DNA from: Escherichia coli
GTDB taxonomy: Bacteria > Pseudomonadota > Gammaproteobacteria > Enterobacterales > Enterobacteriaceae
Direction: 5' to 3' (one strand)
DNA: 64,000 nt
NCBI RefSeq assembly: GCF_003019035.1
Contig: NZ_CP027447.1
The notes under the pieces are model-generated. The model made no database searches. It had not been told where the DNA came from and was given only the letters and a program-made list of their open reading frames with translations. The position numbers and the translations under genes were made by a program. Each line of letters starts with the position of its first letter. The first letter of the stretch is position 1. Below are positions 354 through 23,823 of the stretch, in pieces.

Positions 354-2135
354 ATGAATGCTGCCCTGACTGAACGACTGGTTTATGTCGCCCGCGCGGC
401 ACGTGACGCGGGGCATGGTAAACGCGGTGCAATATACGACGCTGCCTGTGCTGAACTTGGCATGTCCCGCGCCACTCTGCTGCGCAGGCTGAAGGAGGTC
501 TCTGTGACTGATAAACGCAAAAAACGCGCCGATGCCGGGCGCAGCGCTCTGACCCGCGACGAAGCCGCGCTGATATCTGCCACACTGCGTGAGGCCACCC
601 GCAAGAACGGTAAGCGTCTCTATTCCATCGCAGATGCAGTGGAAACCCTGCGGGCTAACGGCTTTATCTCCGCAGGCAGAACAGATGAAACCACCGGTGA
701 GTTTTTCCCGTTGTCCGAAGATGCCATCAGTCGTGCCCTGCGTAACTATGGCCTGCACCCGGAACAACTGGATGCCCCTGCACCGCATACCGAAGTGGCC
801 AGTCTGCATCCCAATCATGTCTGGCAGATTGACGCCTCACTCTGCACGCTTTACTACCTGAGCAATGGACATAAAGGGCTGCAGGTGATGGACAGCGCGA
901 AGTTCTACAAGAACAAGCCCGCTAACCTTGCCCGTATCGCCAGTGACCGCGTGTGGAGTTACGAGATTACCGACCATGCCAGCGGCTGGATTTACGTTGA
1001 GTATGTGACGGGCGCGGAATCCGGTGAGAACCTGTGTTCTGTGCTTATCAACGCCATGCAGGAGCGCGGTGGCGCAGACGTGCTGCACGGCGTGCCGAAA
1101 ATACTCTATCTCGACCCTGGCTCGGCAAACACCGCGGGTATGACGAAAAACATGTGCCGCTCACTGGGCATCGACCTGATAGCGCACAGGCCGCATAACG
1201 CCCGCGCCACCGGACAGGTGGAAAAGGCGCGTGACATTATCGAACGCAAGCTGGAGCCGGGTCTGAAGTTCCGGCCGGTTCACAGTCTGGAAGAACTCAA
1301 CGCGCTGGCCGCGAAATGGCGCAGCCACTTTAACGCCACGGCTGTTCACAGCCGCCACGGTAAAACCCGCACGGATATCTGGCTGAAGATTACTGCTGAG
1401 CAGCTGAAAAAAGCGCCTTCCGTTGAAGTATGCCGTGAACTGGCTGTGGCGACACCAGAACTCCGCAAAGTCACGCCAAAACTTCGTGTCTCGTTCCGGG
1501 GCACTGAATTTGACGTATCAACGGTACCGGGCGTACTGGTTGGTGAAAAACTGATGATTACCCGTAACCCATGGCGCAGCGATGTGGCACAGGTGGTTCT
1601 GACCGGTGAGGACGGCCACGAGACGTTCTTCCTGGTCGAAGAGGTCAGAAAGAACGAGTTTGGCTTTGCTGAAGGCGCGGCGGTATTTGGCGAAAGTTAC
1701 AAAGCCCTGCCGGAAACCCCGGCACAGATGGCGGCAAAAGAAACCGAAGCGCTGGTTACCGGTACAGACAACGCCGCAGATGCAGCCGCCGCACGCAAGG
1801 CGAAGGCGCTGCCGTTCGGCGGGCGGCTTGACCCGTATAAACATATCGACGACACCACACTTCCGGCCTATATGCCGAAGCGTGGTCAGGCCTCTGACGT
1901 ACGCGGGCCGCGCACTGAACAACGTCCCATGACTCATGTGGAGGCCGCGAAAGCCCTGCGCGATAAGTTCAGCGCCGACGGCCTTACCTGGACGCCGGAA
2001 CATTACCGCCAGTTAACGGCACAGTACCCGGACGGCGTACCGGAAGCTGCACTGGATGAAGTCATGGCCACGCTGACCACGCCGGCCCGCAGCAGCGTTA
2101 TCAGCAGCGTTATCAGCATTGTTAACGGCAACTGA
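354..2135 (+). CDS. Mu-like DDE transposase (A-like, integrase-core family)
   Basis: 593 aa ORF, ATG at 354 with GGAGG upstream; integrase-core-like segment (HVWQIDAS...); sits directly upstream of a B-like ATPase as in Mu A-B. Confidence 0.8.
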   Translation: MNAALTERLVYVARAARDAGHGKRGAIYDAACAELGMSRATLLRRLKEVSVTDKRKKRADAGRSALTRDEAALISATLREATRKNGKRLYSIADAVETLRANGFISAGRTDETTGEFFPLSEDAISRALRNYGLHPEQLDAPAPHTEVASLHPNHVWQIDASLCTLYYLSNGHKGLQVMDSAKFYKNKPANLARIASDRVWSYEITDHASGWIYVEYVTGAESGENLCSVLINAMQERGGADVLHGVPKILYLDPGSANTAGMTKNMCRSLGIDLIAHRPHNARATGQVEKARDIIERKLEPGLKFRPVHSLEELNALAAKWRSHFNATAVHSRHGKTRTDIWLKITAEQLKKAPSVEVCRELAVATPELRKVTPKLRVSFRGTEFDVSTVPGVLVGEKLMITRNPWRSDVAQVVLTGEDGHETFFLVEEVRKNEFGFAEGAAVFGESYKALPETPAQMAAKETEALVTGTDNAADAAAARKAKALPFGGRLDPYKHIDDTTLPAYMPKRGQASDVRGPRTEQRPMTHVEAAKALRDKFSADGLTWTPEHYRQLTAQYPDGVPEAALDEVMATLTTPARSSVISSVISIVNGN

Positions 2136-2145
2136 GGAGGAAAAC

Positions 2146-3312
2146 ATGCTGGTACTGAAGCAGCAACTGAAAGAGGCCCGTATCCCACAGGCGGTGGTGG
2201 CGAGAGCTGTCGATGTTTCTGAGGCCACGCTGGCCCAGATTGTGAATCATAACGCGTGGCCCCGCACCCGCCCCGGAGAAGTGCGCCGGCGTCTTGCGTC
2301 CTGGCTGGAAAGTCAGGGGATTGATACAACGAAGAGTTTTGATGCTGTACAGGGCGCGGCCACGCCCCGTACAGCGGGTACCACAGATAAAACGAGCCTC
2401 AGTGAGGAAGAGAATATGTTACTCAAAAAACAGGTGTTATTTCCAGCAACCAAAAAAGCGTTTGGTCTTTTCCGTGACCCGTTCGCCGACGAAGCCATGC
2501 AGGGTTCTGATGATGTGTTCACCACCCCGGACATTCGCTACGTGCGTGAGGCGCTGTACCAGACAGCCCGTCATGGTGGGTTTATGGCCGTCATCGGTGA
2601 GTCCGGTGCGGGTAAATCCACGCTGCGCCGCGACCTGACTGAACGTATCAACCGCGAGAATGCGCCGGTAATTGTTATCGAGCCATACATCATCGCTATG
2701 GAAGACAACGATGTGAAAGGGAAAACCCTGAAGGCAGCAGCTATTGCCGAAGCCATTATCAGTACCATCGCACCACTGGAAAGCATCAGACGCAGTCAGG
2801 ACGCCCGCTTTCGCCAGTTGCATCGCGTCCTGAAAGACAGCAGCCAGGCGGGGTTCAGCCACGTTCTGGTGATTGAGGAGGCTCACAGTCTGCCCATTCC
2901 GACACTGAAACACCTCAAACGCTTTTTTGAGCTGGAGTCCGGTTTCAAAAAACTGCTGTCCATCGTGCTGATTGGTCAGCCGGAACTGGCGACAAAACTG
3001 TCTGAACGCAATATGGAAGTCCGTGAAGTCGTTCAGCGCTGTGAGGTGGTCGAACTTCTGCCTCTGGACAATAACCTTGAAGAGTTTCTGACGTTCAAAC
3101 TGCAACGGGCCGGTAAACAACTGACGGACATTATGGACGCCAGTGCAGTGGATGCCATACGTGCCCGCCTGAGCAATCCGGGAAGTCATCGTAAAAATAT
3201 GGTCAGCCTGCTGTATCCGCTGGCCGTCAGTAACCTGGTGATAGCCGCCATGAATCTGGCCGCTGAAATCGGGGTTCCACAGGTCAACGCTGACGTTGTC
3301 AAAGGGGTTTAA
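2146..3312 (+). CDS. Mu B-like AAA+ transposition ATPase
   Basis: ATG 2146 preceded by GAGGAGG; Walker A GESGAGKST, Walker B-like VLVIEEAHSL; N-terminal HTH-like segment; overlaps A stop. Track ORF starts at TTG 2119, but the ATG at 2146 has the better RBS. Confidence 0.8.
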   Translation: MLVLKQQLKEARIPQAVVARAVDVSEATLAQIVNHNAWPRTRPGEVRRRLASWLESQGIDTTKSFDAVQGAATPRTAGTTDKTSLSEEENMLLKKQVLFPATKKAFGLFRDPFADEAMQGSDDVFTTPDIRYVREALYQTARHGGFMAVIGESGAGKSTLRRDLTERINRENAPVIVIEPYIIAMEDNDVKGKTLKAAAIAEAIISTIAPLESIRRSQDARFRQLHRVLKDSSQAGFSHVLVIEEAHSLPIPTLKHLKRFFELESGFKKLLSIVLIGQPELATKLSERNMEVREVVQRCEVVELLPLDNNLEEFLTFKLQRAGKQLTDIMDASAVDAIRARLSNPGSHRKNMVSLLYPLAVSNLVIAAMNLAAEIGVPQVNADVVKGV

Positions 3313-3314
3313 TA

Positions 3315-3584
3315 ATGAAATCCACCACAGGTATCAACCAGCAAATCAGCAAAGTGCAGTCAGCCATTATGGCGCTTAAGGCGACGAACACGGATGTACA
3401 AAGCATCACCATCAGGGGTAACAAACCTGTCATCCGCGTTTCCCGGAGTGCGCATTGCATGCGCATGCTTGAGCAGGGAAAGGCCTGTTATCTGTATACC
3501 GGACATGACCACAGGGGATATTTCCGTCAGGGCGTTTTCGAACTGCACGGCTGTCGCGTCGTGTGGCCGGAATCTTTGTGGTAA
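3315..3584 (+). CDS. hypothetical small protein (89 aa) between B and gam
   Basis: ATG 3315 with AAAGGGG RBS, 2 nt after B stop; no recognisable motif. Confidence 0.5.
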   Translation: MKSTTGINQQISKVQSAIMALKATNTDVQSITIRGNKPVIRVSRSAHCMRMLEQGKACYLYTGHDHRGYFRQGVFELHGCRVVWPESLW

Positions 3585-3611
3585 TCAGCACAACTGGAGA
3601 AATCATAAAAT

Positions 3612-4142
3612 ATGGCAAAAAGTACAAAAGGGGCAAAACGTATCAAGTCCGCAGCGGCACTCTGGGTACCAGGGACACGCGAAGAGGTCATTGAGGGCAT
3701 CAGACTGCTCGGTGACGCACAACGTGAACTGGTCAGGGCTGAAACAGAAATGAATGACGCCATTGGCGATATCACCGCACGTTATGCCCCGCTCACCGAG
3801 AGCCTGAAAAAACGCATGGCCGAACTGCAGTCCGGTATTCAGACATGGTGTGAGGCACACCGTGATGAACTGACCGGCAACGGGAAGGTGAAGTTCGCTA
3901 ACCTCACCACCGGCGAGGTGCAGTGGCGAAACCGTCCGCCATCAGTCAGTATCCGTGGAGCGGATAATGTTATTGAACTACTGAGACGTCTGGGGCTTGA
4001 GCGCTTTATTCGTGTAAAAGAGGAAATAAATAAAGATGCCATTCTGAATGAAAAAGAGGCCGTGAAAAATATTCCCGGTATTACCATAAAAAGTGATATT
4101 GAGGATTTTTCAATAATTCCTTTTGAGCAGGATGTGCAGTAA
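3612..4142 (+). CDS. gam: Gam-like host-nuclease inhibitor (Mu Gam / Ku-like DNA end-binding)
   Basis: 176 aa; N-terminus MAK...KRIKSAAA, ETEMNDAI, and C-terminal EDFSIIPFEQ closely match recalled phage Mu Gam. Confidence 0.88.
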   Translation: MAKSTKGAKRIKSAAALWVPGTREEVIEGIRLLGDAQRELVRAETEMNDAIGDITARYAPLTESLKKRMAELQSGIQTWCEAHRDELTGNGKVKFANLTTGEVQWRNRPPSVSIRGADNVIELLRRLGLERFIRVKEEINKDAILNEKEAVKNIPGITIKSDIEDFSIIPFEQDVQ

Positions 4143-4184
4143 ACACACCACGTTAATTATTTAATAAAAATATTTTCTTTTTTA

Positions 4185-4221
4185 TTCCGGCGTCAGCGCC
4201 GTGGGCTTCTGCACGCCGGAA
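4185..4221 (+). promoter_or_regulatory. inverted repeat / hairpin in AT-rich intergenic region after gam
   Basis: ttccggcgt (4185-4193) pairs with acgccggaa (4213-4221), preceded by a T-rich tract; may be a gam terminator or an operator for the next operon. Confidence 0.3.
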
Positions 4222-4239
4222 ACAGAGGAGAATTAAATT

Positions 4240-4434
4240 ATGATATTTAAATGTATTCAGTGCGAGAGGGATATAACAGCCCTGCGTTTTCACAGCGCCA
4301 TCGCCGTGATGTCCGGTAAATACCACATCCCTGCGGTACGCGTCACCCTGGTCTGCCCGTACTGCAGCCAGCATTTTTCGGCGGACGTGCCCGTCATGGA
4401 ATTCTCCCGCCCTGACAGGGAGGACGCGCAATGA
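4240..4434 (+). CDS. small zinc-ribbon protein (64 aa; CxxC...CxxC)
   Basis: ATG 4240 with GAGGAG RBS; Cys pairs CIQC and CPYC about 30 residues apart. Confidence 0.55.
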   Translation: MIFKCIQCERDITALRFHSAIAVMSGKYHIPAVRVTLVCPYCSQHFSADVPVMEFSRPDREDAQ

Positions 4435-4703
4435 TTACCCCACAGGAAGCACGACAGCGCACCCGAACCCTTGTTGAACACTATGTCAACGAGTGTGAAT
4501 GCCGCGACCTCACCGATGTGAAGCACGTCCTGACGGCGCTAATCAGCATGGCCGCTCAGGCCATTGTGGCGACCAACGGAAAGGCGGCTGCCCTGCAGGT
4601 ACTGGTGAACACACTCACCCACACGGCAGAGCATGAGGTGCCGTACCGGATGGAAACCACTGCAGAAGGCGGCCTGCACATCACCGTCAGCCGGAAGCAC
4701 TGA
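4431..4703 (+). CDS. hypothetical protein (90 aa)
   Basis: ATGA start/stop overlap with the preceding gene, GGGAGG RBS; no recognised domain. Confidence 0.5.
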   Translation: MITPQEARQRTRTLVEHYVNECECRDLTDVKHVLTALISMAAQAIVATNGKAAALQVLVNTLTHTAEHEVPYRMETTAEGGLHITVSRKH

Positions 4704-4712
4704 GGGCGCGGC

Positions 4713-5009
4713 ATGACACGAAACACCGAACTCACCCGCACCGCCCTCTACCGTCTGGCCCTGCACCGTTTCGGGCCGGACGCACAGGCCCTGAAACTGA
4801 CAGAAGAGGCCGCTGAACTGGCGGCCAGTGCTGCCCGCAATCTGAACGGACAGGGCAACGAAAGTGACCTCGCGGCAGAGCTGGCAGACGTGGAAATCAT
4901 GACAGAGCAATTGCGCCTTCAGGGGATGGACCGGCTGATTGACTTCCACAAACAGAAAAAACTGGAACGTCTGGCTGCACGACTGGGCGTGATTTACACG
5001 AACGAGTAA
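4713..5009 (+). CDS. MazG-like nucleotide pyrophosphohydrolase-domain protein (putative)
   Basis: 98 aa; EEAAELA and ELADVEI motifs resemble the EExxE and ExxD helices of small MazG/NTP-PPase proteins; GAGGG RBS. Confidence 0.45.
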   Translation: MTRNTELTRTALYRLALHRFGPDAQALKLTEEAAELAASAARNLNGQGNESDLAAELADVEIMTEQLRLQGMDRLIDFHKQKKLERLAARLGVIYTNE

Positions 5010-5023
5010 CCGGGAGGCATTCA

Positions 5024-5239
5024 ATGGCTGACATACTCAGGGAAATCACCGCATGGATACTGATTCTTACTGGCCTGGCGACATGCCTCAGTGCGGGGGC
5101 AGCCCTGGCTGCCCTGCTGATGCACATAACAACACAGTGGTTATGGGAAAAGCTTAAAGCAGCATACAGCCTGAAAGAGCTGTCCGACGCTGTCCGGGCA
5201 TGGAAACGGCAGAAAAATACCGGAGATACAGAACAATGA
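5024..5239 (+). CDS. small membrane protein (71 aa, one predicted TM helix)
   Basis: ATG 5024 with GGGAGG RBS; hydrophobic segment ITAWILILTGLATCLSAGAALAALLM; ATGA overlap with the next gene. Confidence 0.5.
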   Translation: MADILREITAWILILTGLATCLSAGAALAALLMHITTQWLWEKLKAAYSLKELSDAVRAWKRQKNTGDTEQ

Positions 5240-5919
5240 CAGACCAGAATAAACACATTGAGAAACTGAAAAAGTTGCTGGCGCTGGCCGCATCCGGCAA
5301 CCCGCACGAGGCCGCTCTGGCACTGCGCCGAGCCCGTAAACTGATGGATGTTCACGGCATCACACATTCCGACATTGCTATGAGTGATATTGATGAAACC
5401 ATCAGTCATTACTGGCCGACAGGCAGTCTCCGTCCACCGCGCTACATGCTGGGCCTGATGAACATCATCCGCGAGGCATTTGGTGTTAACTCCATCATTC
5501 ACCCCGGCACGCATCCGTCTGTGGGGTTCTACGGTAACCGGGAACGAGCGGCACTGGCTGCGTACACCTGGGAAGTGCTGGTCCGCCAGCTGAAAAAGGC
5601 GCGTCAGCAGTATATCAGCGCACAGAACAAAAGAATAAAAAACGCCACCCGTACCAGCCGTGGAGACCAGTTTGCTGAAGGCTGGGTACTGGCCGTTATC
5701 AGTGAAATACAGTCCTTTGCCCTGACCGATGATGAGCGTGAACTGATGCAACAGTGGCTGGAACATAAATACCCGCAAACGCAAACCACCAGGGCGCGTA
5801 AACCGGGAAGAAGCCGCAATGGCGACGCCTCGCGCTATGCGGGGTTTCGTGAAGGGCAGAACGTCAGACTGCACCGCCCGGTCAGTGGGCAGGAACAACA
5901 GAAACTGGAGGCCAGATGA
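5236..5919 (+). CDS. DUF2786-like phage protein (227 aa)
   Basis: N-terminal motif KLKKLLALAASGNPHEAALALRRARKLM is typical of the DUF2786 family; GGAGA RBS. Confidence 0.55.
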   Translation: MTDQNKHIEKLKKLLALAASGNPHEAALALRRARKLMDVHGITHSDIAMSDIDETISHYWPTGSLRPPRYMLGLMNIIREAFGVNSIIHPGTHPSVGFYGNRERAALAAYTWEVLVRQLKKARQQYISAQNKRIKNATRTSRGDQFAEGWVLAVISEIQSFALTDDERELMQQWLEHKYPQTQTTRARKPGRSRNGDASRYAGFREGQNVRLHRPVSGQEQQKLEAR

Positions 5920-6146
5920 TTACGCTATCAGGTAACAGCCGGAAATTAAAAGCCTGCCGAATATCTGCCAGATACCTTTTTGCCCGCGCCTTTTTTAAGA
6001 ACGTCAGGCCGGGGATCACAATTGGTGTTATTGCCGGACGCGAACAGGTTGAAAAATACATGTCAGGTGCATGGTGGGATAACGACCCTGTCATTGCTGC
6101 CCGTAATATTCATATCAGTTGGGGGGATATTCAGAATGACGGCTGA
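5916..6146 (+). CDS. hypothetical protein (76 aa)
   Basis: ATGA overlap with DUF2786 gene stop, GGAG RBS 5 nt upstream; no domain recognised. Confidence 0.4.
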   Translation: MITLSGNSRKLKACRISARYLFARAFFKNVRPGITIGVIAGREQVEKYMSGAWWDNDPVIAARNIHISWGDIQNDG

Positions 6147-6351
6147 ATCTGTTGTATGTGCCCTGTTCTGGTATTGTTTTGTCGGTTGGTGTACTGCTGA
6201 ACTGCACCGCCGTTCAGGGTTTTATTCACGTTACAGTGGTGCCGGCTACTGGATTAGCTGGTCGGTGATGTTCCTGTGCTGGCCTGTGGCGCTTCCTTTA
6301 TATGTCGGTTATATCGGTGGCGCAGGTAAAAGGAGCAACGATGATGACTAA
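6136..6351 (+). CDS. small membrane protein (71 aa, two predicted TM helices)
   Basis: ATG 6136 preceded by GGGGGG; two hydrophobic, W/C-rich helices; 3' end overlaps gemA start. Confidence 0.45.
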   Translation: MTAESVVCALFWYCFVGWCTAELHRRSGFYSRYSGAGYWISWSVMFLCWPVALPLYVGYIGGAGKRSNDDD

Positions 6352-6793
6352 ACAACGTCTTATCCAGCTCATTCATATTGCCCGTAATGAACTGGGTATG
6401 GATGAAGACACCTACCGCCAGATGTTACAGGGGCTGACCGGTAAAGCCTCAACCAAAGGAATGGATACCACACAACTAAACTGCGTGCTGGAATCCATGA
6501 AAAGGAAAGGCTTTCGCGTTAAGCCTGCCGGAAAAGCCAGCTCCGGTTTACCGCTGGATAACCATCCGCAGTCCAGGAAAATCCGTGCGCTATGGCTTGA
6601 AATGGCTGCTGCCGGCATTGTTCGTGACCGTTCAGAAAATGCATTAGCGCGGTGGATCAAGCGGGAAACGGGCATCAGCGCCCTGCGCTGGCTCAATACT
6701 GAACAGGCAAGCAGTGTTATTGAGAAACTGAAGAAGTGGCAGCACAGAGCTGCGGGAGTAAAACATGAGCGACCTGAATCAGTTTCGAAGTAA
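6341..6793 (+). CDS. gemA: GemA-like protein (Mu gp16 family)
   Basis: ATG 6341 with AAAGGAG RBS; N-terminus MMTKQRLIQLIHIARNELGMDEDTYRQ matches the GemA family; 3' end overlaps mor by 29 nt. Confidence 0.8.
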   Translation: MMTKQRLIQLIHIARNELGMDEDTYRQMLQGLTGKASTKGMDTTQLNCVLESMKRKGFRVKPAGKASSGLPLDNHPQSRKIRALWLEMAAAGIVRDRSENALARWIKRETGISALRWLNTEQASSVIEKLKKWQHRAAGVKHERPESVSK

Positions 6794-7163
6794 AGGGCCG
6801 GAACTCCTGGTGGAGCTGGCACAGCATACCTCTGAGACCGTTCGCGAGATTATTGATATTGAGCCCGCAATTGCCGACCAGATTGGTCAGGCCGTCGCGA
6901 ACCGAATGATGCAGGTCTGGGGCGGGCAAAACGTTTATTTCCCGATGGGCATGGTATGGAAGGTCAGTCAGCGCGACCGGGAAATCTTCAGGGAGTTTAA
7001 CGGACGCAACCACCACGAACTGGCCCGCAAGTTTGGTGTTTCGCTTCAGTGGGTCTACAGCGTGGTTAAGCGGGTCAGAAAAGAAGAACTGGATCGGATG
7101 CAGGGCAGGTTGTTTGATGAAGATCTGCCAGAGGAGACGAAAGACGTTAACAAATCCAGATAA
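6765..7163 (+). CDS. mor: Mor-like middle-operon transcriptional activator
   Basis: 132 aa; GGQNVYFP motif and C-terminal HTH resemble Mu Mor; GGGAG RBS. Confidence 0.82.
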   Translation: MSDLNQFRSKGPELLVELAQHTSETVREIIDIEPAIADQIGQAVANRMMQVWGGQNVYFPMGMVWKVSQRDREIFREFNGRNHHELARKFGVSLQWVYSVVKRVRKEELDRMQGRLFDEDLPEETKDVNKSR

Positions 7164-7205
7164 TTCCTGCTTGTTAAAGTCCTTTCAAAAATCTCCTTAT
7201 TGTAT

Positions 7206-7240
7206 AAAAGCACGGTAGACCCCTTACCGTGCTTTTTTTA
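7206..7240 (+). terminator. rho-independent terminator after mor
   Basis: Stem agcacggta / taccgtgct with 7-nt loop, followed by a T7 run (7234-7240). Confidence 0.6.
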
Positions 7241-7277
7241 TGCTCTCTCTTTAGTATTCAGGATGCAGGGAGAAAAT

Positions 7278-7910
7278 ATGTTTGACGTTTCGTTGTTAAA
7301 TCTGCCATGGGCAACACTGGTGACCCTGACCAGTGGCTATATTGGGTATTTTATTGCGAATGTGGGACTGAAGGATCACCACAAGCCCATTGAGGTGACT
7401 TTTTCTTCGCTGATTTTTGGCCTGACAGCAATGATGGCTTACCAGGCTGTTATGTGGGCAGGTCTGAATGCCTGGCTGGCAACACCACCAGCACTTCTGT
7501 GTGCCGTTACATGCGGTGCGTGGTGGCGCAGGTACGGTCGCAAATGGATGTACAGATTACTGTGGAATAATGATATTTCATGGTCTGACGATACCAGCTC
7601 AGCATGGCAGGCAATGTTTGATCAAACAGGCTTCAGCGTTACCGAGGTCAGAGTGATTCTTCGCGATGGTTCCGGTATGATGTCACGGCTGCCAGGGAAC
7701 TTTGAAGAGTGGCCTAACGGTCCGTTTACCCTGGGGAATAAAGGCGATATGGTTCTTTACGTCACGCACAGCAGCCCTTCAGGCAGTAACGAATGGGAAG
7801 AGTATAAAGGCGTGGTTGATAAGTACTGGGGAGCTCTGGCAACCTATATTCCAGCAGATCAGATTGCCAGAGTGGAGATCAGGCGCGTTCGTGCAACGAA
7901 CGATGAATGA
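7278..7910 (+). CDS. orphan membrane protein (211 aa; three N-terminal TM helices plus about 125-aa soluble C-terminal domain), function unknown
   Basis: ATG 7278 with AGGGAGA RBS 6 nt upstream; hydrophobic helices at roughly residues 8-30, 40-63 and 67-83; sits where Mu carries late activator C; no family recognised. Confidence 0.6.
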   Translation: MFDVSLLNLPWATLVTLTSGYIGYFIANVGLKDHHKPIEVTFSSLIFGLTAMMAYQAVMWAGLNAWLATPPALLCAVTCGAWWRRYGRKWMYRLLWNNDISWSDDTSSAWQAMFDQTGFSVTEVRVILRDGSGMMSRLPGNFEEWPNGPFTLGNKGDMVLYVTHSSPSGSNEWEEYKGVVDKYWGALATYIPADQIARVEIRRVRATNDE

Positions 7911-8295
7911 TGTTTATTTTTTCCCTGGGGCAGGGGCTGCCGGCATAGTGGTTTTATTGGCAGAGGAAGACGATTCTCCTTTTCTACCGGAATCGCGCTC
8001 GAACGTCACGATGTGCTTGCTTTTGGGCTTTTCTGAGTAATCCAGGCTATCATGCTTATTGTTTTGAGTAGTCATTGGAATCATCCTTTTTGTTGCGGGT
8101 CATGTTTCAGCAAACTCGATTCTAAGTTGCCAGGAAGGATGATTTCAATGCCCGACTTATCTATCGTATAGCGGAAAAGAATTTCAGTTCTGTTCACCAG
8201 AACCCATGTTAACCCACTCCAATTCGTTATTTATCTCACGGATCCCCCTTCATTTATCTCATGTCTGATCAAATCAATAATCATCATGAATGTTT

Positions 8296-8312
8296 TGTTT
8301 ATAATTGGTTGA
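8296..8312 (+). promoter_or_regulatory. putative PhoP box upstream of slyB
   Basis: TGTTTA-N5-GGTTGA direct repeat about 125 bp upstream of slyB ATG; slyB is recalled as PhoP-activated. Confidence 0.35.
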
Positions 8313-8435
8313 TCCTACTTTCATTATGATTTGCTCATATTTGGTAGAACATGTAACCATGGATTCACATATGCCATATACTTTGACCATGAGGGATGCT
8401 TGCGTGGCGTTTCATGGTGAACAGGAGATTTTTCA

Positions 8436-8903
8436 ATGATTAAACGCGTATTGGTTGTTTCAATGGTAGGTCTGTCTCTTGTCGGTTGTGTTAATAACGA
8501 CACCCTGTCAGGGGATGTTTATACCGCTTCTGAAGCGAAACAAGTACAGAATGTCAGCTATGGCACCATCGTTAACGTACGTCCGGTACAGATTCAGGGC
8601 GGTGATGATTCCAACGTTATCGGTGCAATTGGCGGTGCTGTTCTTGGTGGTTTCCTGGGGAATACTGTTGGCGGCGGAACCGGGCGTTCTCTGGCTACTG
8701 CAGCAGGCGCTGTTGCAGGTGGCGTAGCCGGTCAGGGCGTACAGAGTGCAATGAACAAAACGCAGGGTGTCGAGCTGGAAATTCGTAAAGACGATGGTAA
8801 TACCATCATGGTGGTACAGAAACAAGGCAACACTCGTTTCTCTCCGGGCCAACGTGTCGTACTGGCCAGCAATGGCAGTCAGGTGACCGTTTCCCCGCGC
8901 TAA
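8436..8903 (+). CDS. slyB: outer membrane lipoprotein SlyB
   Basis: 155 aa; lipobox LVGC and Gly-rich core match E. coli SlyB. Confidence 0.95.
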   Translation: MIKRVLVVSMVGLSLVGCVNNDTLSGDVYTASEAKQVQNVSYGTIVNVRPVQIQGGDDSNVIGAIGGAVLGGFLGNTVGGGTGRSLATAAGAVAGGVAGQGVQSAMNKTQGVELEIRKDDGNTIMVVQKQGNTRFSPGQRVVLASNGSQVTVSPR

Positions 8904-9584: not shown

Positions 9585-9821
9585 GTGAAGTTTATGCTCA
9601 ATGCAACAGGATTGCCCTTACAAGATCTGGTGTTCGGTGCGTCCGTATACTTTCCTCCGTTTTTCAAAGCCTTCGCGTTTGGATTCATCATCTGGCTTGT
9701 CGTACACCGCCTGCTTCGTGGCTGGATCTACGCCGGTGACATCTGGCATCCCTTGTTAATGGATTTATCGCTGTTTGCGATTTGCGTTTGCCTTGCCCTG
9801 GCAATACTGATTGCGTGGTAA
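9585..9821 (+). CDS. ydhI: DUF1656 inner membrane protein YdhI
   Basis: 78 aa hydrophobic protein, upstream of ydhJK as in K-12. Confidence 0.85.
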
Positions 9822-9823
9822 CT

Positions 9824-10681
9824 ATGTCAATTAAAACAATTAAGTATTTCTCAACAATCATTGTAGCGGTAGTTGCGGTTCTTGCCGGATGGTGGCTGTG
9901 GAATTATTACATGCAATCTCCGTGGACACGCGACGGGAAAATACGCGCAGAACAGGTTTCTATCACCCCTCAGGTGTCGGGACGTATTGTTGAGCTGAAT
10001 ATAAAAGACAACCAACTGGTTAACGCGGGGGATCTTCTGCTCACGATCGATAAAACGCCCTTTCAGATCGCCGAGCTGAACGCACAGGCTCAGCTGGCGA
10101 AAGCGCAATCTGACCTCGCAAAAGCCAATAACGAAGCGAATCGTCGTCGTCATCTCTCACAAAATTTTATTTCTGCCGAAGAACTCGATACCGCTAACCT
10201 CAATGTTAAAGCGATGCAGGCCAGTGTTGATGCCGCACAGGCGACGCTGAAACAGGCACAATGGCAACTGGCGCAAACGGAAATTCGCGCCCCGGTGAGT
10301 GGATGGGTGACTAACCTCACTACCCGCATCGGCGATTACGCTGACACCGGGAAACCGCTGTTTGCCCTTGTCGACAGCCACTCGTTTTACGTCATTGGTT
10401 ATTTTGAAGAAACCAAGTTGCGCCATATCCGCGAAGGTGCACCAGCACAAATTACCCTCTATAGTGATAACAAAACGTTACAGGGTCACGTTTCCAGTAT
10501 CGGTCGGGCGATTTATGATCAGAGCGTTGAAAGTGACTCAAGCCTTATTCCGGATGTGAAACCTAACGTCCCCTGGGTTCGACTCGCCCAACGCGTTCCC
10601 GTCCGCTTTGCGCTGGATAAAGTCCCAGGCGATGTCACGCTGGTGTCGGGCACCACCTGTAGCATTGCCGTAGGTCAATAA
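9824..10681 (+). CDS. ydhJ: HlyD-family membrane fusion protein YdhJ
   Basis: ATG at 9824 (MSIKTIKYF...), N-terminal TM then coiled-coil region. Confidence 0.88.
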
Positions 10682-22995: not shown

Positions 22996-23823
22996 GTGGC
23001 GCGGATAAACCGTATTTCGATCACGCTCTGTGCTTTACTTTTTACCACCCTGCCTTTAACGCCTATGGCCCATGCTTCAAAGCAAGCCAGGGAGAGTTCT
23101 GCTACCACTCATATCACCAAAAAAGCAGATAAAAAGAAAAGCACGGCAACCACCAAAAAGACCCAGAAAGCCAGCCAGAAAACAGCGAAAAAAGCCGCCA
23201 GTAAAAGTACGATCAAAAGCAAAACCGCTTCTTCCGTTAAAAAATCTTCCATTACCGCTTCTAAAAACGCCAAAACTCGCAGCAAACACGCCGTCAATAA
23301 AACGGCCTCAGCCAACTTTACCGAAAAGTGTACCAAACGTAAGGGCTATAAATCGCATTGTGTGAAAGTCAAAACTGCCGCGTCAGGAACCCTTGCCGAC
23401 GCGCACAAAGCGAAGGTGCAAAAAGCCACGAAAGTGGCAATGAATAAACTGATGCAGCAAATTGGTAAGCCATATCGTTGGGGCGGCAGCTCACCGCGTA
23501 CCGGTTTTGATTGCAGCGGCCTGGTTTATTACGCTTATAAAGATTTGGTGAAAATTCGTATTCCGCGTACGGCGAATGAAATGTATCACCTGCGAGATGC
23601 AGCGCCAATCGAACGTAGTGAACTGAAAAACGGCGACCTGGTCTTTTTCCGTACTCAGGGACGCGGTACAGCCGATCATGTCGGCGTATATGTCGGCAAC
23701 GGCAAATTTATTCAGTCACCGCGTACGGGTCAGGAAATTCAAATCACTTCTCTCAGTGAAGACTACTGGCAGCGCCACTATGTTGGCGCTCGCCGGGTAA
23801 TGACCCCAAAAACACTTCGCTAA
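22996..23823 (+). CDS. mepH: NlpC/P60 peptidoglycan endopeptidase MepH (YdhO)
   Basis: Signal peptide, K/T/A-rich linker, C-terminal NlpC/P60 domain (GFDCSGLV...H). Confidence 0.9.
   Translation: MARINRISITLCALLFTTLPLTPMAHASKQARESSATTHITKKADKKKSTATTKKTQKASQKTAKKAASKSTIKSKTASSVKKSSITASKNAKTRSKHAVNKTASANFTEKCTKRKGYKSHCVKVKTAASGTLADAHKAKVQKATKVAMNKLMQQIGKPYRWGGSSPRTGFDCSGLVYYAYKDLVKIRIPRTANEMYHLRDAAPIERSELKNGDLVFFRTQGRGTADHVGVYVGNGKFIQSPRTGQEIQITSLSEDYWQRHYVGARRVMTPKTLR

Follow-up and report, generated by a model that had tools for sequence, protein, structure and literature searches.

A small predicted zinc-ribbon protein in the early region of BcepMu-like prophages of Escherichia coli and other Enterobacterales

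The window analysed here is a 64,000-nucleotide stretch of an Escherichia coli genome (contig NZ_CP027447.1). It carries a Mu-like transposable prophage of the BcepMu type, whose outward-reading early operon occupies positions 1 to ~7250 (Table 1). The ORF under study encodes MIFKCIQCERDITALRFHSAIAVMSGKYHIPAVRVTLVCPYCSQHFSADVPVMEFSRPDREDAQ, a protein of 64 aa, and lies in the distal part of a single co-oriented string of early genes that runs from the transposase to Mor, between gam and gemA/mor. The position of the zinc-ribbon gene corresponds to the "semi-essential early" region of phage Mu. A strong intrinsic terminator (7206–7236; 13-bp stem and T-run) directly follows mor, and the host genes slyB and slyA, recognized from their translated ORFs, begin near 8436. 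The closest phage record was Escherichia phage PhiKM (Bcepmuvirus), with 97.7% identity over positions 3600–5100. In JJ1886 and SCU-101, the same gene string stops at Mor and host genes come directly after it, which is the BcepMu layout.

Table 1. Early genes of the prophage and features of the zinc-ribbon locus (window positions)
Feature	Position	Strand	Remarks
Transposase	354–2135		co-oriented early gene string
MuB-like / ExeA-family ATPase	2119–3312		co-oriented early gene string
89-aa ORF	3315–3584		directly 3' of MuB-like gene; phrog_2041
Gam	3612–4142		PF07352
T-rich tract (4173–4186) and 33-nt GC-rich hairpin (4187–4219)	4173–4219	+	gam-to-zinc-ribbon intergenic region; neighbouring element, not part of the gene
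Shine–Dalgarno GAGGAG	4225–4230	+	9 nt upstream of ATG
Zinc-ribbon ORF (C4 zinc-ribbon protein, predicted)	4240–4434	+	64 aa; phrog_3401; RefSeq WP_001295928.1-like "hypothetical protein"
First zinc knuckle, C5-I-Q-C8	4252–4263	+	codons C5 4252–4254, C8 4261–4263
Long beta-hairpin between knuckles, residues 16–38	4285–4353	+	DSSP on AF2 model
Second zinc knuckle, C39-P-Y-C42	4354–4365	+	codons C39 4354–4356, C42 4363–4365; family motif L-x-C-P-[HY]-C
Variable C-terminal tail (SRPDREDAQ here)	4402–4431	+	low model confidence; mostly neutral to acidic in the family
ATGA stop/start overlap with 90-aa ORF	4431–4434	+	sequence and ORF list
90-aa ORF	4431–4703	+	next after zinc-ribbon ORF
MazG-like ORF	4713–5009		98 aa; phrog_2245, E 8e-34
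71-aa hydrophobic ORF	5024–5239		phrog_3958
DUF2786/DUF7168 gene	5200–5919		longest-ORF start at 5200 gives 239 aa
Two small ORFs	5916–6146, 6136–6351
GemA	6302–6793
Mor	6765–7163

Among the neighbouring genes, the 89-aa ORF occupies the same position as kil in Mu, and its product weakly matched the PHROG of the Mu Kil septation inhibitor (E 0.019). The MazG-like protein is of the all-alpha NTP pyrophosphohydrolase type, with Pfam PRA-PH reached only below threshold. A nucleotide-pool enzyme recurs in this early region, since the same region of related phages contains either a MazG-like gene or a PF04447 dATP/dGTP pyrophosphohydrolase, and gp06 of BcepMu is annotated as a pyrophosphatase. The 71-aa ORF extends past the start of the DUF2786/DUF7168 gene when that gene is taken as its longest ORF. 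This start is probably too early because PGAP places that of the equivalent gene in JJ1886 later (684 nt, about 227 aa), where it overlaps the upstream gene by 4 nt. Between mor and host slyB, an ORF of 210 aa (7278–7910) belongs to phrog_12870 (E 1e-133; annotated as of unknown function). It is likely a moron at the prophage end, as it is missing from the equivalent prophages of JJ1886 and SCU-101, in which the end sequence is different.

An earlier note, made from the sequence alone, had described an ORF of 64 aa with CxxC motifs at residues 5–8 and 39–42, and this description proved exact. Sequence comparisons identified the ORF as a genuine gene under purifying selection. Differences from a 56%-identical homolog (L004; related loci are given here by their L numbers) numbered 19, 16, and 35 at codon positions 1, 2, and 3, respectively, and the dN/dS ratio (Nei–Gojobori) ranged from 0.08 to 0.35 over all pairs with unsaturated dS. 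PGAP calls the plus-strand ORF as a "hypothetical protein" in both JJ1886 (WP_001295928.1) and SCU-101 (WP_000576352.1). A 401-bp segment comprising the end of gam, the hairpin, the ORF, and the start of the next ORF (4100–4500) matched 623 of 5426 complete E. coli genomes. The ATGA overlap suggests translational coupling between the zinc-ribbon ORF and the 90-aa ORF; the same 4-nt overlap was present in L006 and L016, but with a different downstream gene.

That the real gene is instead the ORF on the opposite strand (4153–4431, 92 aa), or that the stretch contains no gene, has a negligible probability. The PhiKM record (PQ738613) does annotate a minus-strand "hypothetical protein" over the same stretch (23520–23741 of that record, corresponding to window positions 4153–4431) and leaves the plus-strand ORF unannotated. 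However, the minus-strand frame is interrupted by a stop codon in L004, and because it is not conserved, we consider the PhiKM annotation to be on the wrong strand. The minus-strand ORF had no PHROG match, whereas the plus-strand ORF matched phrog_3401 over its full length (E 1.2e-40, residues 1–64 on profile positions 1–64 of 64). The third-position excess, the dN/dS well below 1, the PGAP calls, the strong Shine–Dalgarno sequence, and the orientation shared with the whole operon also speak for the plus strand, and on these comparative data the opposite-strand and no-gene readings are refuted.

The position of the gene within the operon was assessed via promoters, terminators, and the layout of related loci. 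No promoter-like site was detected on the plus strand in 3000–8500, and no canonical terminator was detected between gam and the zinc-ribbon ORF. Nothing here indicates that the gene opens an accessory operon, as the earlier note had proposed; it lies inside the co-oriented string. The early genes of Mu form a single early transcript from Pe. Given the co-orientation, the lack of an intervening promoter or terminator, and the analogy with the Mu transcript, we infer that the zinc-ribbon gene would be co-transcribed with the early genes. Its placement first after gam and directly after a hairpin, also claimed earlier, holds for only some clades; elsewhere there is no hairpin, and the ORF directly adjoins or overlaps gam, DUF3164, or a different ORF.

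The hairpin itself is a well-conserved element. RNA folding of 4140–4245 gave −29.8 kcal/mol (z = −4.1), and the element was near-identical in DNA across loci in which the flanking coding sequence is saturated at synonymous sites, with one compensatory C:G to T:A change. It was found in the window, L008, L009, L010–L015, L055–L084, and L102–L104, where it follows gam or DUF3164. In L102–L104, another gene stands between the hairpin and the zinc-ribbon ORF; L006, L016, L087, and L097–L101 carry the zinc-ribbon gene without a hairpin upstream of the ORF; and a degenerate copy of the hairpin remains where the zinc-ribbon gene is missing. Judging by these patterns, the hairpin belongs to the 3' boundary of gam/DUF3164 and is not tied to the zinc-ribbon gene, and we rejected it as a regulator specific to that gene. 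Sequestration of the ribosome binding site, seen in the fold of 4140–4245, did not look conserved in the L010-type sequence when read by eye. Neither strand of the element forms a canonical terminator, and an Rfam scan of 3500–8500 yielded no match. The gap between gam and gp11 of Mu (6326–6423 of NC_000929, L022) is analogous, with an AT-rich stretch, a GC hairpin, GAAACAG, and a Shine–Dalgarno sequence, but its stem sequence is different. Candidate roles for the hairpin are RNA processing or stability, attenuation, and module-boundary recombination. It is conserved separately after gam/DUF3164, has an analogue in Mu, and may be a more interesting object than the zinc-ribbon gene.

The phrog_3401 match was the sole library match of the zinc-ribbon protein; this PHROG is annotated as of "unknown function", and its RefSeq members are called "hypothetical". 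Scans with Pfam, NCBIfam, and PADLOC gave nothing above cut-off, with sub-threshold matches to generic zinc knuckles (DUF7560, Zn_ribbon_20, YnfU, and Sgf11), and no family among the PADLOC-DB anti-phage defence models matched at E ≤ 0.1. The literature searched mentioned neither the accessions nor phrog_3401, and searches on Mu-like zinc-ribbon or anti-defence proteins yielded one relevant study, that of the phage protein Enki, as a precedent. By sequence comparison, the family is already catalogued but uncharacterised, and belongs to no characterised family.

We estimated the distribution of the family with two large protein searches (word-indexed and exhaustive HMMER), which recovered a narrow family only, and by sampling 80 viral contigs via the MuB-like protein, that is, blind to the zinc-ribbon gene. 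The MuB-based sampling yielded more divergent members than the protein searches, and by both routes phrog_3401 was found only in BcepMu-like transposable prophages of Enterobacterales. The zinc-ribbon gene was present in 70 of the 80 MuB-sampled loci. Two of the remaining 10 were truncated; the other eight (L089–L096) form one sublineage, in which a MazG-like gene lies directly 3' of DUF3164. No ORF with two CxxC motifs was detected in the early region of BcepMu. As the gene is missing from both L089–L096 and BcepMu, it is, on this sequence sampling, dispensable for the lineage. One member of the sublineage, L092, encodes just after its MazG-like gene a different, basic protein of 155 aa (9704–10171) with a CxxC...CxxC pattern (C12/C15 and C42/C45).

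Conservation within the family is concentrated at the putative zinc site. Five residues (C5, C8, L37, C39, and C42) were invariant in 19 non-redundant homologs with identities down to 23%, and V33, P40, Y/F46, and P51 were nearly invariant; the invariance of the cysteines had been seen first in 13 homologs. The earlier note had named loss of the four cysteines in homologs as one observation that would count against a zinc ribbon, and all four were retained in each of the 19. The spacing between the Cys pairs was constant at 29–30 residues across the family, with the pattern CX2C-X30-CX2C in the protein of the window. Composition was far more variable: the net charge ranged from −13 to +4 and the pI from 4.05 to 8.95, most of the divergent members being strongly acidic with acidic tails, and the net charge of the tail ranged from −7 to +1. 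No basic residue was conserved in the family, K4 being replaced by Q, N, T, or L.

The zinc-ribbon protein also diverges quickly. Its identity between loci was 31–56%, whereas in the same phages the transposase and the MuB-like protein were mostly 73–95% identical (63% for the transposase in one locus), MazG was 59–76% identical, and GemA/Mor were 32–92% identical, with Mor dropping to the level of the zinc-ribbon gene in one locus. Of the early genes that these phages share, it diverges fastest by these comparisons. Two database proteins looked like domain fusions. P0016 is a deletion-derived fusion of residues 1–26 of the zinc-ribbon protein to Mor, and P0004 joins residues 1–51 to the C-terminus of the 90-aa ORF at a shared "VP" dipeptide. 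Both are products of prophage decay or assembly error and not natural domain fusions; many other database "variants" were frameshifted reads.

The fold of the protein was predicted with AF2 from a 13-sequence alignment. The model is all-beta with a pLDDT of 89.4, falling to 52 in the last residue block, which is the tail. DSSP assigned strands to residues 16–25, 30–38, and 45–51, with a short strand at each knuckle; the hairpin formed by residues 16–38 and the strand 45–51 make up a three-stranded antiparallel sheet linking the knuckles. The model is thus a confident predicted zinc ribbon of classic topology, and together with the invariant cysteines it bears out the small C4 zinc-ribbon signature that had been noticed in the sequence. 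Structural searches gave no significant neighbour among solved structures or predicted viral ones. The best Foldseek match had an E of 0.15 against the PDB (NrdR zinc ribbon, TM 0.48) and of 0.023 against BFVD, and a PDB sequence profile search gave nothing below E 0.2. One of the non-significant BFVD matches (E 0.026, TM 0.54) covered part of a protein from Gordonia phage GodonK (133 aa) that is annotated as "MazG-like"; its gene was not present in the initial 50 kb of that genome (122 kb).

Several characterised proteins invite comparison, and with them three other readings of the function. Com of Mu, which the earlier note had not considered, is a zinc-ribbon RNA binder and a translational activator of mom. 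Like the protein studied here, Com (PF10122; 62 aa) is small, has four Cys ligands, and comes from a transposable phage; Com has an N-terminal knuckle "x-I-[KR]-C-x-N-C-x-K" and a second knuckle "C-P-x-C-x-x-H", and com overlaps the downstream mom much as the zinc-ribbon ORF overlaps the next ORF. In hhalign, the family reached a probability of 76% against Com with a single sequence and 55% with a richer profile–profile comparison, both knuckles being in register in each case; this is above the values for Ogr (0.9%), NrdR (5.9%), and Mu gp13 (24%). By profile comparison, Com is the nearest characterised protein, at a similarity below significance. A Com-like RNA binder that regulates translation of a neighbour, via the upstream hairpin or the overlapping downstream ORF, would also fit the strongly conserved hairpin found immediately upstream in many clades. 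However, none of 13 family members matched PF10122 at E ≤ 10, as opposed to 2.7e-9 for Mu Com as the positive control, and a further profile–profile run (62%) placed only one knuckle in the alignment, and that out of register. The family is neutral to very acidic, in contrast to the strongly basic Com, and the segment between the knuckles has 16 residues in Com but 30 here. Given the unmatched profile, the run out of register, and the difference in charge, we do not claim membership of the Com family. The hairpin tracks the 3' end of gam/DUF3164 and not the zinc-ribbon gene, the junction between the zinc-ribbon ORF and its downstream gene folds no better than shuffled sequence (z = 0.30), and that downstream gene is not mom but varies by clade. 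We consider a Com-like role improbable.

A DNA-binding regulator of phage promoters is, in our judgement, very improbable, whether an activator of the Ogr/Delta type, to which the earlier note had likened the protein, or another regulator such as a NrdR-like zinc ribbon. P2 Ogr and P4 Delta (PF04606) are likewise small phage proteins with four Cys ligands, and the C4 protein is encoded in the regulatory/early region near GemA and Mor. However, PF04606 was matched at E ≤ 10 by none of the 13 members, as against 1.1e-21 for P2 Ogr (NC_001895), used as the positive control; hhalign against Ogr gave a probability of 0.9%; and Ogr has the spacing CX2C-X22-CX4C. With the profile, hhalign, and the Cys pattern all against it, membership of the Ogr/Delta family was excluded. 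The gene also differs from Ogr/Delta in its setting, being in an early operon, and the Mu-like phage that carries it already has an activator of the Mor family; the gene is missing from a sublineage that retains Mor and GemA. The N-terminal zinc ribbon of NrdR (PF22811; PDB 9fzf, 7p37, and 9gex) provided the best, albeit weak, PDB matches in Foldseek (E 0.15–1, the best of them 0.15–0.6; TM about 0.48), none of which was significant, and hhalign gave 5.9%. NrdR has a basic, DNA-binding ribbon fused to an ATP-cone, whereas the protein here stands alone, is not basic, and belongs to a family with no conserved basic surface. As for the remaining alternative, a subunit or regulator of a phage early protein that is not host-directed, we give it a small chance. 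The partner would be the adjacent MazG-like NTP pyrophosphatase or the product of the coupled downstream ORF. A stop/start overlap with the downstream gene was present in every clade examined, the overlapping gene being MazG-like in L006, L008, L016, and L017; an NTP pyrophosphatase (MazG-like or PF04447) was found nearby in most loci; and the GodonK match could be read in the same direction, but was not significant. The coupled gene, however, belongs to three unrelated families depending on the clade (90-aa, 67-aa, or MazG-like). At least 10 loci (e.g., L057, L062, L067, L085, and L101–L104) have the zinc-ribbon gene without any NTP pyrophosphatase, and L089–L096 have MazG without the zinc-ribbon gene. 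These patterns of presence and absence ruled out obligate pairing with MazG or with the downstream ORF.

Other small Cys-rich proteins are encoded in the semi-essential early region of Mu. These are gp6 (Mup06, E5; 4542–4772 of NC_000929, L022) and gp13 (Mup13, E14; 7471–7653), both uncharacterised and at operon positions different from that of the zinc-ribbon gene. Mu gp6, with the pattern CPGC...CPWC, reached 69% in hhalign with both knuckles aligned in the first alignment, and 31% with one knuckle when the richer family profile was used. Mu gp13, which has four CxxC motifs resembling a double zinc ribbon, reached 24%. At the sequence level, the similarity of gp6 and gp13 to the zinc-ribbon family is not robust. 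The two proteins do indicate that small zinc proteins recur in the early regions of transposable phages.

The reading that we favour, while rating it at slightly less than an even chance, is that the zinc-ribbon protein is a dispensable, protein-binding accessory factor, a modulator of the host or of its defences; this is a better fit than a nucleic-acid-binding regulator. It would be a zinc-stabilised single-domain protein, with a three-stranded antiparallel sheet clamped by two CxxC knuckles and, after it, a short tail that varies and is often acidic. The zinc site would serve as the scaffold, with specificity residing in the diverging surface and tail. The protein would act by binding another protein, most plausibly a host factor, a host defence protein, or a protein of DNA metabolism, and not DNA or RNA. 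We base this reading on the lack of a conserved basic residue, the fast divergence, the dispensability, and the lack of a fixed gene partner. A conserved DNA- or RNA-binding role is argued against by the same lack of a conserved basic residue and by the mostly strongly acidic composition of the divergent members, with the caveat that a small number of members have a mildly basic pI (8.95 at most). Fast divergence may also arise where a very small scaffold protein is only weakly constrained.

A precedent of kind may be seen in Enki, a 52-aa zinc-ribbon phage protein that inhibits AbiH and retron defences (bioRxiv 10.1101/2024.06.14.598830). Enki is of the same size class, a predicted zinc ribbon, phage-encoded, and accessory. 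The likeness is one of kind only, and the phage type and host of Enki differ from a BcepMu-like prophage of E. coli. A more specific version of the protein-binding reading, which we regard as possible but unlikely, sees in the protein a zinc-scaffolded inhibitor that evolves rapidly, is peculiar to BcepMu-like phages of enterobacteria, and acts on a host protein. That host protein would belong to a defence system or be a factor of DNA metabolism or replication that matters for replicative transposition; with the invariant ribbon as the scaffold, changes in the surface and in the acidic tail would follow those in the target. Of the interpretation in the earlier note, the zinc ribbon thus stands, on the cysteines and the AF2 model, and the suggested inhibitor of a host protein is the possible and better reading that we infer, whereas the Ogr/Delta comparison and the opening of an operon fell away.

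At present, the protein joins the other small zinc-ribbon proteins that are catalogued as "hypothetical". The distal early regions of transposable phages are for the most part uncharacterised, and that of Mu is no exception. On the protein-binding reading, if true, the gene would encode a small effector, and its prophage is present in ~11% of complete E. coli genomes, among them that of JJ1886, an ST131 strain. With its rapid divergence, the protein is a reasonable candidate for a factor of counter-defence or host takeover in transposable phages. Should the inhibitor reading hold, it would represent a new family of phage proteins for counter-defence or host takeover, present in about one in 10 complete E. 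coli genomes.
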